Source: Escherichia coli
GTDB lineage: Bacteria; Pseudomonadota; Gammaproteobacteria; Enterobacterales; Enterobacteriaceae
Assembly: GCF_003334815.1 (NCBI RefSeq)
Contig: NZ_QOWO01000012.1
Strand: one strand, 5' to 3'
Length of the DNA: 64,000 nucleotides
Shown: positions 29,270 to 41,121 of the stretch, in pieces
How the letters are laid out: every line of letters starts with the position of its first letter
Numbering within the stretch: position 1 is the stretch's first letter
Made by a program: the position numbers and the translations under genes
The notes under the pieces: generated by a model
What the model was told of the DNA's origin: nothing
The model's input: only the letters and a program-made list of their open reading frames with translations
Database searches by the model: none

Positions 29270-30055
29270 CTACGCGTCTTCCTGGGGAAGAATGATTTCA
29301 ATTTGGCTGTCTTGTAAGCGTGATTTTAGCGCAGCGGGCGGCAGCTCGTCGGTAAAGAGCGCAGTGACCTGTGCCACGTTACCAATTTCAACCGCCGCCG
29401 AAGCATGATACTTAGTGTGATCGGCGACCAGCAGAATATTTCTCGCGTGCGCCATCATCGTTTTCACCACGTTAGCTTCGTTTACATCAAACTCCATCAA
29501 CGCGCCATCGCTCTCAATCGCCCCAACGCTTGTTACCAGATAATCAGCACGAAAATCAGCCACAAAGGACGCCGCTGAAGGGCCAATGATCCCGCTATTA
29601 TGAGAGCGCAACGTACCGCCGGGCACCATCACTTCAAAGCGCGGGTTGTGGTAAAGAATATGCGCCACACGCAGGCTGTTGGTGATTATCCGCAAATGAT
29701 TATGGTTAAGTAACGCCCGGGCAACATGCTCAACAGTCGTACCAATGGTGATAAATATTGTTGAACCATCAGGAATATAGTCTGCCACCGCTTCGGCAAT
29801 CGCTTTTTTTTCCTCGGTTTGCGAAACCTCACGCTGCTCGAACGCCGTATTAACGACGCTGGAAGCCCGACCCGCGCCACCGTGATGGCGCGTAATCAGG
29901 CCTTGCTCGCTTAATTTACGAATATCCCGGCGGACCGTCTGCGTGGAGACATCCAGCAGATTTGCCAGCTCATCAATATTCATATACCCACGCTCGGCGA
30001 TCAGCATGAGGAGTTGGTCGTGCCGCGGGTTACCGGTTAGTTCGGTAAGGCTCAT
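29270..30055 (-). CDS. yihW: DeoR-family repressor of sulfoquinovose catabolism (CsqR/YihW)
   Basis: ORF 29270..30079; ATG at 30055 (MSLTELTGNPRHDQLLMLIAERGYMNIDELANLLDVSTQTVRRDIRKL...) gives 261 aa with DeoR HTH and sugar-binding C-domain. Confidence 0.88.
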   Translation of the reverse strand: MSLTELTGNPRHDQLLMLIAERGYMNIDELANLLDVSTQTVRRDIRKLSEQGLITRHHGGAGRASSVVNTAFEQREVSQTEEKKAIAEAVADYIPDGSTIFITIGTTVEHVARALLNHNHLRIITNSLRVAHILYHNPRFEVMVPGGTLRSHNSGIIGPSAASFVADFRADYLVTSVGAIESDGALMEFDVNEANVVKTMMAHARNILLVADHTKYHASAAVEIGNVAQVTALFTDELPPAALKSRLQDSQIEIILPQEDA

Positions 30056-30088
30056 GAAAATTCCTCGAAAAACCATCACCCTGGCATT

Positions 30089-30985
30089 TTATACAAAAAG
30101 TGACAAAAAAGATCGGGTTTGATCACAGTCAGGGATCCCGGCTCGTCCACCGGGACGTGTGCATTTTAACGCCGCTACACCGCTGGCGAAGCGGACTGAC
30201 TCCGCTAAATCCCCACTTGTTGCCAGCGCCACCGCCAAAGCGCCGTGAAAAACATCACCCGCACCTGTGGTATCTACCACATCAACTTTGAAGGCCGGTT
30301 GATGCTGACGCCCACCATTTTCCAGCCAGTCGCAGCCTGCGCTACCCTGGGTCACATAGACATGACCATTTGTGAGCGTTTGTGCCTGTTTTAGCGCACT
30401 GGCCATCTCTTTCACGCCCGTTAAGCGCGCCAGACCCGGTTCTGAAAAGGCCGCGTGATCGCTTAATGCCACCAGCTCACTGATATCCTGCGGCGTAATG
30501 TCCCCGTCCAGAACGGTCATCACACCCGCCTGACGGGCCAGGGTGAAGGCTTTTTTAGCGCCGTCGTGCCAGCGTACATCTGCCAGCACAACATCCCACT
30601 GAGAGAAATCAATTTCCTCCAACCACTCTGCGTCAGGCAGCAGATCCGGGCTGGGGTAGTTAATGATTATCCGCTCGCCTTTGGTATCCACCATGATGGC
30701 GGATTGCGAAGATTTCGCCTGGTTATACCGTTTGGTGTAACGGGTGTTAACGCCCCAGGATTCCAGCTCTGCCAGCAGGCTGTTGCCCGTGTCGTCATCA
30801 CCTACGCGACCAATAAAATCGACCTGCGCCCCCAGCCTTGCCGCCGCAACCGCTGCCGTCGCCGCTGGCCCGCCACCAACTTCCGTATAATTTCTCGCCA
30901 CGTATTTACCGCTCTCCGTCGGTAACCCTTCCACGTAATAGATGCGATCCATCACGGTTATACCTACACAAGCAACACGAATCAT
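30089..30985 (-). CDS. yihV: Sulfofructose kinase YihV (PfkB/ribokinase family)
   Basis: ORF 30089..30991; ATG at 30985 (MIRVACVGITVMD...) 298 aa; PfkB motifs (GGGPAATAA, DTTGAGD). Confidence 0.9.
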   Translation of the reverse strand: MIRVACVGITVMDRIYYVEGLPTESGKYVARNYTEVGGGPAATAAVAAARLGAQVDFIGRVGDDDTGNSLLAELESWGVNTRYTKRYNQAKSSQSAIMVDTKGERIIINYPSPDLLPDAEWLEEIDFSQWDVVLADVRWHDGAKKAFTLARQAGVMTVLDGDITPQDISELVALSDHAAFSEPGLARLTGVKEMASALKQAQTLTNGHVYVTQGSAGCDWLENGGRQHQPAFKVDVVDTTGAGDVFHGALAVALATSGDLAESVRFASGVAALKCTRPGGRAGIPDCDQTRSFLSLFV

Positions 30986-31152
30986 GGTCATTCCTTAAAC
31001 ATTTTGGGATGCGTTCATTTTAATTTCACCAATTGTTTAAAAAGTGACGGCTGTCAATTTTTTGACGATAAATTACAAATACGATCAAAAACAGACAAGC
31101 AAAGCATGTCATAAATGACAAAAAGTGACATCACTGTATTCAGGAGAGGGTT

Positions 31153-38915: not shown

Positions 38916-38957
38916 TAATAATAAACGACGCCCTGCGGGGCGTTATAAGGAGTGATT

Positions 38958-40361
38958 ATGTCTGACCATAATCCACTGACATTAAAACTGAATCTGCGGG
39001 AAAAAATCGCCTATGGTATGGGCGACGTCGGTTCGAATTTAATGCTCTGCATCGGTACTCTGTATCTCCTCAAATTTTATACCGATGAATTAGGGATGCC
39101 TGCTTACTATGGCGGGATTATCTTTCTGGTGGCGAAGTTTTTTACCGCGTTTACCGATATGCTCACCGGATTTTTACTCGACTCGCGGAAAAATATTGGG
39201 CCTAAAGGCAAATTTCGTCCCTTTATTTTATATGCAGCGGTTCCGGCGGCGTTAATTGCAACGCTCCAGTTTATCGCCACCACCTTTTGTTTGCCGGTTA
39301 AAACGACGATTGCCACCGCGCTGTTTATGATGTTTGGACTTTCATACAGTCTGATGAACTGCTCGTATGGTGCGATGATCCCGGCAATTACCAAAAACCC
39401 GAATGAGCGCGCGCAGCTCGCGGCTTACCGCCAGGGTGGTGCAACCATAGGGCTATTGATTTGTACCGTGGCGTTTATTCCGTTGCAGTCGCTTTTTTCT
39501 GACTCAACCGTCGGTTATGCCTGTGCGGCACTTATGTTCTCCATTGGCGGCTTTATTTTTATGATGCTGTGCTACAGAGGCGTCAAAGAGCATTATGTGG
39601 ACACAACGCCAACCGGACATAAAGCCAGTATTCTCAAATCATTTTGCGCGATATTTCGGAATCCGCCATTGCTGGTTTTATGCATTGCTAACTTGTGTAC
39701 CCTGGCGGCATTTAATATCAAACTGGCGATTCAGGTCTATTACACCCAGTATGTGCTGAATGATATTAATTTATTGTCGTGGATGGGATTCTTCAGTATG
39801 GGATGCATCCTCATCGGCGTATTACTGGTGCCATTAACTGTAAAATGTTTTGGTAAAAAACAGGTTTATCTGGCTGGCATGGTGCTGTGGGCGGTGGGTG
39901 ATATACTGAATTATTTCTGGGGAAGTAACTCTTTCACTTTCGTCATGTTCTCTTGTGTCGCCTTTTTTGGCACGGCCTTTGTAAACAGCCTGAACTGGGC
40001 ACTGGTACCAGATACCGTAGATTACGGTGAATGGAAAACCGGTATTCGTGCCGAAGGTTCTGTTTATACCGGTTATACCTTCTTTCGTAAAATTTCTGCC
40101 GCACTTGCTGGCTTCTTGCCAGGCATTATGCTGACGCAAATTGGTTATGTTCCCAACATCGCGCAAAGCGATGCGACATTACAGGGTTTGCGTCAGCTCA
40201 TTTTTATCTGGCCTTGTGCACTGGCAATTATTGCTGCATTGACGATGGGATTCTTTTACACACTCAATGAAAAACGGTTTGCATTGATTATTGAGGAAAT
40301 CAACCAACGCAAAAATAAAGAGATGGCGACAGAAGAAAAAACGGCTTCCGTAACGTTATAA
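38958..40361 (+). CDS. yihO: GPH-family transporter YihO (sulfoquinovose / sulfoquinovosyl-glycerol uptake)
   Basis: ORF 38952..40361; ATG at 38958 (MSDHNPLTLKLN...) with AAGGAG SD; 467 aa; close paralog of the adjacent yihP product. Confidence 0.85.
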   Translation: MSDHNPLTLKLNLREKIAYGMGDVGSNLMLCIGTLYLLKFYTDELGMPAYYGGIIFLVAKFFTAFTDMLTGFLLDSRKNIGPKGKFRPFILYAAVPAALIATLQFIATTFCLPVKTTIATALFMMFGLSYSLMNCSYGAMIPAITKNPNERAQLAAYRQGGATIGLLICTVAFIPLQSLFSDSTVGYACAALMFSIGGFIFMMLCYRGVKEHYVDTTPTGHKASILKSFCAIFRNPPLLVLCIANLCTLAAFNIKLAIQVYYTQYVLNDINLLSWMGFFSMGCILIGVLLVPLTVKCFGKKQVYLAGMVLWAVGDILNYFWGSNSFTFVMFSCVAFFGTAFVNSLNWALVPDTVDYGEWKTGIRAEGSVYTGYTFFRKISAALAGFLPGIMLTQIGYVPNIAQSDATLQGLRQLIFIWPCALAIIAALTMGFFYTLNEKRFALIIEEINQRKNKEMATEEKTASVTL

Positions 40362-40428
40362 ATGTCAATAGCCGCTATTTCCATCCTGGTGGGTGGCGGC
40401 CTCCCTACGTTTAAAAAATGGACTTATT

Positions 40429-41121
40429 ATGAAAAAGATTAATGCAATAATTTTATTATCTTCTCTGACCTCTGCCTCGGTATTTGCTGGCGCATACGTC
40501 GAAAACAGGGAGGCATATAATCTTGCCTCCGATCAGGGCGAGGTTATGCTACGTGTGGGTTATAACTTCGATATGGGCGCGGGTATTATGTTAACCAATA
40601 CCTACAACTTTCAGCGAGAAGATGAACTAAAACATGGATATAACGAAATTGAAGGCTGGTATCCGTTATTTAAACCAACCGATAAATTAACCATCCAGCC
40701 CGGTGGCTTAATTAATGATAAGAGTATCGGTTCGGGTGGTGCAGTGTATCTGGACGTCAACTATAAATTTGTACCATGGTTTAATCTGACAGTACGAAAT
40801 CGCTATAACCATAATAACTATAGTTCAACAGATTTGAGCGGGGAACTGGATAATAATGACACCTATGAAATTGGCACCTACTGGAATTTTAAAATCACCG
40901 ATAAATTTTCCTATACATTTGAGCCACATTACTTCATGCGAGTGAATGACTTTAATAGTAGCAACGGGAAAGATCATCATTGGGAAATCACTAACACCTT
41001 CCGTTACCGTATTAATGAACACTGGCTCCCTTATTTCGAATTGCGCTGGTTAGACCGCAACGTCGAACCGTACCACCGCGAGCAAAACCAGATCCGTATC
41101 GGGACGAAGTATTTCTTCTGA
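40429..41121 (+). CDS. ompL: Outer-membrane porin OmpL
   Basis: ORF 40393..41121; ATG at 40429 (MKKINAIILLSSLTSASVFA...) gives 230 aa with signal peptide and a C-terminal aromatic residue (…GTKYFF). Confidence 0.85.
   Translation: MKKINAIILLSSLTSASVFAGAYVENREAYNLASDQGEVMLRVGYNFDMGAGIMLTNTYNFQREDELKHGYNEIEGWYPLFKPTDKLTIQPGGLINDKSIGSGGAVYLDVNYKFVPWFNLTVRNRYNHNNYSSTDLSGELDNNDTYEIGTYWNFKITDKFSYTFEPHYFMRVNDFNSSNGKDHHWEITNTFRYRINEHWLPYFELRWLDRNVEPYHREQNQIRIGTKYFF

Follow-up and report, generated by a model that had tools for sequence, protein, structure and literature searches.

Introduction

The breakdown of the plant sulfolipid head group sulfoquinovose (SQ) by the sulfo-Embden-Meyerhof-Parnas route (sulfo-EMP) is best described for Escherichia coli K-12, in which it is encoded by the cluster ompL-yihOPQRSTUVW/csqR (Denger et al. 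2014; Shimada et al. 2019; Sharma et al. 2021). The pathway, its repressor CsqR and the inducers are established (PMC8006165, PMC6278857, PMC8249747, PMC12608037), and growth of K-12 on SQ with excretion of dihydroxypropanesulfonate (DHPS) as well as SQ-inducible expression have been reported (PMC6278857, PMC12608037). The regulator, the promoters and the occurrence of long and short strain variants of the cluster were also published beforehand (PMC5816610, PMC12608037 and others). By degrading the head group of an abundant plant sulfolipid, the cluster completes one step of the sulfur cycle, and it serves as the reference model for sulfoglycolysis; none of this is new. Here, a stretch of 64,000 nucleotides (nt) of E. 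coli contig NZ_QOWO01000012.1, referred to as the window, was analysed with respect to positions 29270-41121, for which an original prediction made from the sequence had proposed a sulfoglycolysis island with a divergent core, tandem transporters and a dedicated porin.

The locus is the known sulfo-EMP cluster of E. coli in its K-12 form, and this finding was already known. Positions 29000-41400 of the window match at 100% identity E. coli chromosomes whose RefSeq annotation places csqR and yihV on the minus strand and yihU, yihT, yihS, yihR, yihQ, yihP, yihO and ompL on the plus strand, so that the DNA equals that of K-12-type strains and locus, genes, order, strands and regulator are those of the K-12 cluster. 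The orientation of the window, which we take to be the reverse of the usual K-12 map, is the sole difference. With high confidence, the locus is best explained jointly as a sulfo-EMP cluster regulated by CsqR and CRP, with AAAAAGTGAC elements as candidate half-sites for CsqR, an ancestral operon reaching from yihU to ompL that bears a scar in K-12-type strains, and an ancient cassette that is exchanged within the species.

Gene limits and the lengths of spacers and gaps rest on RefSeq start codons throughout. Counts for E. coli refer to 5426 complete genomes. The cross-species comparison covered 80 related loci from other species, and the divergent spacer was aligned from 25 genera.

Genes and enzymes of the pathway

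The ORF (open reading frame) check of the window returned ten ORFs with the predicted sizes, coordinates and strands, and together with the identity to annotated genomes this bears out the gene content and the divergent core. On the minus strand lie csqR (yihW, 29270-30055), which encodes the DeoR/GlpR-family repressor of the cluster and whose longest ORF begins at GTG 30079 while the RefSeq start is ATG 30055, and yihV (30089-30985), which encodes the sulfofructose kinase of the PfkB family. On the plus strand follow yihU (31153-32049, sulfolactaldehyde 3-reductase), yihT (32073-32951, class I, LacD-like sulfofructose-1-phosphate aldolase), yihS (32968-34209, sulfoquinovose isomerase), yihR (34347-35249, aldose-1-epimerase acting as sulfoquinovose mutarotase), yihQ (35448-37484, sulfoquinovosidase of family GH31), the GPH-family transporter genes yihP (37530-38915) and yihO (38958-40361, the sulfoquinovose importer), and ompL (40429-41121), the gene of a small KdgM-family outer-membrane porin. 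The cassette is bordered by yihX and yihN.

Profile searches on the translated ORFs, which had been named as a check of the prediction, matched all expected sulfoglycolysis enzyme families. NCBIfam equivalog matches above the cut-off were obtained for YihU (NF012005, 603 bits, cut-off 348), YihR (NF011719, 617 bits, cut-off 251), YihQ (NF007746, 1247 bits) and OmpL (NF007434), and NCBIfam family matches for CsqR (DeoR/GlpR), YihV (ribokinase/PfkB), YihT (tagatose-bisphosphate-type class I aldolase, including subfamily matches), YihS (mannose-isomerase/AGE-type) and the two GPH symporters YihP and YihO (TIGR00792). Moreover, each of the five core enzymes matched over its full length a PDB entry bearing a sulfoglycolysis name: YihQ matched 5AED ('Sulfoquinovosidase', residues 1-678), YihV 7AG6 ('Sulfofructose kinase', 7e-200, residues 1-298), YihT 7AG1 (8e-194), YihU 6SM7, and YihS both 7AG4 ('Sulfoquinovose isomerase') and 2RGK (E. 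coli YihS), in agreement with its RefSeq name. Annotation identity, family profiles and solved structures thus agree with the sulfoquinovose reading; the pathway steps themselves were shown by others, and the support contributed here is sequence identity alone.

In the established pathway, SQ glycosides cross the outer membrane presumably via OmpL and the inner membrane via YihO. YihQ then cleaves the glycoside by hydrolysis, YihR interconverts the anomers, YihS converts SQ to sulfofructose and YihV phosphorylates the latter, after which YihT splits the phosphorylated sulfofructose into dihydroxyacetone phosphate and sulfolactaldehyde. YihU converts sulfolactaldehyde to DHPS, which is excreted, YihP being the proposed and unproven exporter. 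The most variable and dispensable gene of the cassette is yihR, which is missing from the loci of Enterobacter, Leclercia, Rahnella and Buttiauxella and, where present in other genera, is 52-71% identical as compared with 85-95% for the neighbouring genes.

Other main roles have been assigned to the cluster, namely assembly of the O-antigen capsule, first proposed in Salmonella, and a second lactose pathway. The Salmonella literature ties yihUTSRQPO and yihVW to the capsule (cited in PMC7922415), and lactose induces yihT, yihS and yihV (PMC5816610). However, the structures reveal pockets dedicated to the sulfonate group and a specificity for sulfo-sugar intermediates (PMC8006165), knocking out yihO, yihS, yihV, yihT and yihU abolishes growth on SQ (PMC6278857), and approximately 100-fold derepression of the operon gave no higher capsule yield (PMC7922415). 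A main function other than SQ catabolism is therefore highly improbable, the capsule and lactose roles having already been largely refuted by enzymology.

Divergent control region and csqR promoter

The yihV/yihU divergent control region (30986-31152) has a length of 167 bp and a GC content of 0.335. Its core of about 80 bp (31017-31097) is almost invariant across the 25 genera, although identity to the E. coli proteins is only about 72-94% for their YihU and YihV, and the length of the spacer is constrained to about 152-172 bp. Binding of CsqR, CRP and RNA polymerase to this region and several yihU start sites have been reported (PMC5816610, PMC8249747, PMC12608037), three YihW sites are given by a secondary source (PMC7922415), and the repressor CsqR (PMC12608037, PMC8006165, PMC8249747) is released by sulfoquinovose. 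In the regulatory part of the mechanism, CsqR as a DeoR-type repressor binds the spacer and its own promoter, SQ, SQ-glycerol and sulforhamnose release it, and CRP binds both regions.

Operator-like repeats, whose absence from the divergent region would have spoken against the prediction, were found. The exact motif AAAAAGTGAC occurs three times in the 64-kb window, at 30095 (30095-30104), 31039 and 31120 (31120-31129), and all three copies fall within the spacer or the csqR promoter, the two stretches for which CsqR binding has been reported. When up to one mismatch was allowed, 14 matches were obtained in the window against 4.4 expected, a number reached in none of 100 shuffles. The copy at 31039 is part of a 24-bp imperfect palindrome, AAAAAGTGAC-GGCT-GTCAATTTTT, at 31039-31062, the inverted copy with one mismatch occupying 31053-31062, and the copy at 31120-31129 sits within a TGACA-N5-TGACA repeat at 31116-31130. 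The motif was present at fixed positions in about 45 loci. A DeoR/GlpR regulator thus adjoins its targets, and repeated operator-like sites stand at the reported binding regions and are kept across genera.

The csqR promoter/operator region (30056-30130, minus strand) overlaps the last yihV codons and the 33-bp yihV-csqR gap. Transcription of csqR was mapped to start 27/28 nt upstream of the ATG, with CRP binding there (PMC5816610), which places the promoter in the yihV 3' end and the yihV-csqR gap. The elements observed are TATAAA (reverse complement of 30087-30092), GTCACTTTTT at 30095-30104, which is operator-like, and TGTGATC at 30119-30125, which is CRP-like. In about 25 genera the block TGTGATCAAACCCGATCTTTTyTGTCACTTTTTGTATAAAATG is kept, always equally far from the csqR ATG. 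The minus-strand TATAAA at 30087-30092 fits the mapped start, and the AAAAAGTGAC copy at 30095 appears to lie between the -10 and -35 elements of csqR, as autorepression would predict. The claim that the 167-bp spacer must hold both the regulator and the catabolic promoters therefore holds for the yihV and yihU promoters and the operator-like repeats, whereas csqR also has a promoter of its own in the 3' end of yihV and the yihV-csqR gap, so that the regulator's promoter is not restricted to the spacer.

The strongest candidates for half-sites of CsqR are the conserved AAAAAGTGAC elements, with two putative sites in the spacer, one of them in the 24-bp palindrome, and one in the csqR promoter. 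Two points weigh against this putative assignment: the geometry of the palindrome is CRP-like (GTGA-N6-TCA), and CRP binds both the spacer and the csqR promoter regions (PMC5816610). A simple sigma-70 consensus scan gave no match in the 167-bp spacer, and its matches overall were no commoner than in shuffled sequence. Hexamers of the -35 and -10 type picked by eye for yihU and yihV were unconvincing, and no placement is claimed.

The yihR-yihQ gap and the TauE/SafE gene

The gap between yihR and yihQ (35250-35447, plus strand, 198 bp, GC content 0.308) had been put forward as AT-rich DNA long enough for an internal promoter. It contains a filler at about 35279-35390 and the yihQ leader at 35391-35447, which is kept within Escherichia and contains the palindrome CCTGTAATAACAGG and a GGAG ribosome-binding site. 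In alignments with O157 and E. whittamii, homology ends at about 35278 and restarts at 35391, and the AT-rich filler of about 112 bp in between, for which no relative was detected outside E. coli, stands in place of about 0.95 kb that bears a TauE/SafE-family gene in other strains. The insert encodes a 291-aa ORF, named 'sulfite exporter TauE/SafE family protein' in RefSeq for O157:H7 and matched by Pfam PF01925 (TauE, 8e-35); NCBIfam gave no match for this protein. In O157:H7 ATCC 43889 the ORF lies at 6739-7614 of the fetched locus L085, corresponding to window positions 35279-35390, and no PF01925 ORF was found between yihR and yihQ in the window, only 198 non-coding bases.

The filler is present in 2634 and the TauE/SafE gene in 1296 of the 5426 complete E. 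coli genomes, the latter including O157:H7. A search for distant copies found the filler as a single copy in nearly all genomes that carry it (median 1, highest 2), and blastn with 7-base words against all fetched loci, tauE genes included, returned K-12-type copies only. The TauE/SafE gene separates yihR from yihQ in O157, E. whittamii, Salmonella enterica subsp. diarizonae, Citrobacter wls619, Superficieibacter and Mangrovibacter, and yihQ from yihP in Kluyvera, Atlantibacter, Pantoea and others. In most genera yihQ begins 7-115 bp after yihR or yihS with a conserved leader, the distance being 7-40 bp after yihS in Enterobacter and relatives, while one group has about 1 kb in between.

On this comparison, the 198-bp gap is best read as a derived scar left where K-12-type strains lost or replaced a gene; the TauE/SafE gene would have been swapped for the AT-rich filler. 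We infer that the ancestral arrangement was one long operon from yihU to ompL. Some observations count against these two proposals. The proposed direction of the tauE event, loss in the K-12 type and not gain elsewhere, is read from presence in the outgroups; furthermore, yihQ promoters were predicted in silico and yihR and yihQ expression was largely independent of the sugar (PMC5816610), which is more in line with a degree of independent transcription than with a single strict operon.

The competing explanation is a functional internal promoter at 35250-35447, possibly controlled by CsqR, which drives yihQ-yihP-yihO-ompL apart from the yihU promoter. The AT-richness and sufficient length of the gap, the candidate yihQ promoters and the independent transcription of yihR and yihQ deduced in the same study (PMC5816610), and the repeat-laden yihS-yihR gap upstream speak for such a promoter. 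Against it, the plus strand of the gap gave no match in the sigma-70 consensus scan and the gap held no AAAAAGTGAC-like motif with at most one mismatch. The gap is mostly lineage-specific filler replacing a gene, and the short distance from yihS to yihQ in Enterobacter and relatives implies that a promoter is not needed there. In addition, genomic SELEX (systematic evolution of ligands by exponential enrichment) classes CsqR as a single-target regulator binding the yihU/V region (PMC8249747), Salmonella yihUTSRQPO is treated as a single operon, which deletion of yihW derepresses about 100-fold (PMC7922415), and yihP, yihO and ompL are strongly induced by SQ in K-12 (PMC12608037). The single binding region of CsqR and the SQ induction of yihP, yihO and ompL argue for read-through, and an internal promoter is accordingly considered rather unlikely. 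Of the earlier description of the gap, AT-richness and the length of 198 bp stand; an ancestral regulatory spacer it is not, since the position is the site of the TauE/SafE gene in O157:H7, E. whittamii and S. diarizonae.

Folding of the 198-bp gap was not significant (z -1.4), and a riboswitch or terminator was rejected on this basis. Two short ORFs in the gap (14 aa from 35309 and 23 aa from 35374) are supported by nothing as real genes. No RNA family was matched within 29270-41121 by Rfam at gathering thresholds.

The yihS-yihR gap contains a GC-rich dispersed intergenic repeat (34218-34300) that forms hairpins (fold z -2.6) and has a median of 14 copies per E. coli genome. K-12-type strains carry the repeat in this gap; it is missing from O157-type cassettes, in which the gap measures only 66 bp. 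The repeat resembles a boxC element.

No specific mention of a TauE gene as part of the E. coli yih cluster was found in the searchable literature, and the 11-gene TauE/SafE variant with the K-12 gap as a scar is likewise absent from it, although both are visible in public annotation; the finding is an incremental one. It implies the caution that the K-12 reference is without a gene for a putative sulfonate exporter which the cassette retains in many strains and genera. The scar bears on any reading of the 198-bp gap as regulatory DNA, a caution that was also not found in the searchable literature.

Transporters and porin

The predicted tandem transporters and porin were confirmed by family matches as two paralogous GPH transporters and one KdgM-family porin. 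YihP and YihO are 65% identical, and their paralogy is visible at the DNA level as the only long repeat detected in the repeat search. Deletion of yihO abolished growth on sulfoquinovose, and YihP was graded the 'most likely' DHPS exporter (both PMC6278857). OmpL matches Pfam KdgM (3.5e-91) and distantly the sialic-acid channel NanC (PDB 2WJQ). Porins of the KdgM family are channels for acidic sugars. The designation of OmpL as a 'dedicated porin' appears reasonable from these matches.

The TauE/SafE finding bears on the transporter assignments, that is, on the predicted roles of YihO, YihP and the TauE-like protein. A tentative proposal, which we regard as possible and not as the likelier case, is that the TauE/SafE-family protein was the ancestral dedicated DHPS exporter and was lost in K-12-type strains, leaving the 198-bp scar. 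If true, the textbook assignment of YihP as the DHPS exporter may be wrong or incomplete, and YihO and YihP, as glycoside-type symporters of 65% identity, may both import, for example SQ and SQ-glycerol.

As a separate observation, ompL of the window (40429-41121) is 89.6% identical at the nucleotide level to that of O157 (L085 12702-13394), the flanking yihX and yihN being about 99% identical. The contrast points to old alleles or to diversifying selection acting on the porin.

A probably ancient cassette in an exchangeable slot

The region from yihYX to typA, which may or may not include yihLMN, houses the cassette in Salmonella, Citrobacter, Klebsiella, Enterobacter, Kluyvera, Leclercia and others, and this synteny across the Enterobacteriaceae marks it as old. 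Within E. coli it occupies a sharply bounded slot. At least 80% of the cassette is present in 3880 of the 5426 genomes. The swappable segment comprises 29239-41156: homology to strains with an alternative cassette stops at 29238/29239, inside the yihX-csqR intergenic region (29172-29269), and resumes at 41156/41157, inside the convergent ompL/yihN gap (41122-41211), which carries a pair of hairpins of the REP (repetitive extragenic palindromic) type with a fold z of -4.4. A different, eight-gene cluster lies there in about 1385 of the genomes, and is also found in some Citrobacter, Erwinia and Edaphovirga loci. An accessory, recombining cassette in a slot with three alternative occupants in E. 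coli is supported by these data; the K-12 reference is one of the three. We infer that the cassette is ancient at this position in the Enterobacteriaceae and is exchanged with the two other occupants by homologous recombination within E. coli.

In the original prediction, the AT-rich ompL and yihO were taken as consistent with an acquired accessory island. A recent, horizontal acquisition by E. coli would draw on the GC content of ompL (0.408, z -2.8) and yihO (0.450; 0.437 for yihO-ompL together), on the sharp junctions with a different occupant in many genomes, and on the nucleotide identity between K-12 and O157, which is 89.6-98.3% for the cassette genes (ompL 89.6, yihP 94.7, yihR 95.1) and 99% for the flanks. 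The remaining cassette genes have GC contents of 0.485-0.556, and the whole cassette has 0.507 as compared with 0.506 for the window, so that a composition distinct from the surroundings is contradicted. In every genus that possesses ompL it is the cassette gene with the lowest GC content, so that the low value goes with the gene itself and does not signal recent transfer, and the AT-rich zone runs past the cassette into yihN (0.450) and yihM (0.439). Neither tRNA genes in a scan of the window nor long direct or inverted repeats flanking the cassette boundaries were found, and the RefSeq annotation contains no mobility genes (integrase, IS (insertion sequence) element, transposase). Together with the identical gene order in Salmonella, Citrobacter, Klebsiella, Enterobacter, Kluyvera and others, this renders recent acquisition improbable. 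Of the features by which an island would be recognised, variable presence among strains with sharp boundaries was observed, and atypical composition, mobility signatures and absence or lack of synteny in related genera were not. The accessory, replaceable character and the AT-rich ompL/yihO end thus remain from the island proposal, and recent acquisition does not.

Further observations concern the right flank and other lineages. The neighbouring yihN and yihM (41212-44277) are AT-rich (0.44-0.45), yihL-yihM-yihN adjoins the cassette in few genera only, and in many genera typA comes after the last detected cassette gene, ompL or yihO. In E. coli JX21CE35 (L002 15143-15990) an IS1 element stands in place of the segment from the yihR 3' end through yihM, and yihS is also frameshifted. 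Yersinia, Serratia and Hafnia retain csqR-yihV/yihU and yihQ-yihP-yihO-ompL and carry a class II aldolase, a GalM-type epimerase and an SftI-like sulfoquinovose isomerase in place of yihT and yihS, as exemplified by Yersinia frederiksenii (L059 10949-14314) and similarly seen in L033, L045, L051, L054, L060, L061 and L066. This swap is a non-orthologous displacement inside the same cassette frame.

Other features of the window

Window positions 24750-26250, around yiiF and yiiE, are strongly AT-rich (GC content 0.32-0.39) and include an annotated pseudogene fragment (25810-25926). Outside the cassette, Rfam matched CsrC (53435-53688), Spot 42 (54717-54835), ES222 (46399-46506), STnc370 (44441-44509) and the fdoG SECIS (selenocysteine insertion sequence) element (19484-19542), as well as four REP-derived naRNA4 copies at 1321, 10243, 10335 and 51114. 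Gene coordinates transferred from strain FORC 064 were out of register in window positions 1-10400 and in register from 10452. This shift points to an indel between the two strains, which probably lies in the REP/naRNA4 copies near 10243-10405.

Comparison with known systems

The 11-gene yih cassette of O157:H7, E. whittamii, S. enterica subsp. diarizonae, some Citrobacter, Superficieibacter and Mangrovibacter shares with the window the ten genes, the divergent spacer and the operator block. Its own feature is the 291-aa TauE/SafE (PF01925) gene where the window has 198 bp of non-coding DNA, and unlike the window it is without the dispersed repeat in the yihS-yihR gap.

The yih cassette described as 'short' (Kaznadzey et al. 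2025, PMC12608037), which E. coli Nissle 1917 and many pathogenic strains carry, occupies the same slot between yihX and yihN and was reported not to be induced by SQ (PMC12608037). It is the inverted eight-gene cluster, found at L003 387-8945 in E. coli OkiPb01685 and also in Nissle 1917. Identity to CsqR, YihV, YihU and YihT amounts to 67-73% for its DeoR regulator, kinase, YihU-like reductase and class I aldolase, and part of the spacer block is kept as ATAAATTACAAATA..TCAAAAACAGAC. In contrast to the cassette of the window, it is inverted, lacks yihS, yihR, yihQ, yihP, yihO and ompL, and has as additions a Zn-dependent dehydrogenase, two unrelated MFS transporters and a different (aldose-1-) epimerase. 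That the 'short' cassette is really an eight-gene alternative cluster is absent from the searchable literature and visible in public annotation, and is again an incremental point.

With other sugar operons under DeoR-family control (glp, deo, aga and ula) the yih cluster has in common a DeoR/GlpR repressor adjoining its target, repeated operators at two promoters, co-regulation by CRP and the pathway sugar as inducer. It differs from them in the AAAAAGTGAC-like recognition motif, which is specific to the yih cluster and through which CsqR would presumably recognise its two promoter regions.

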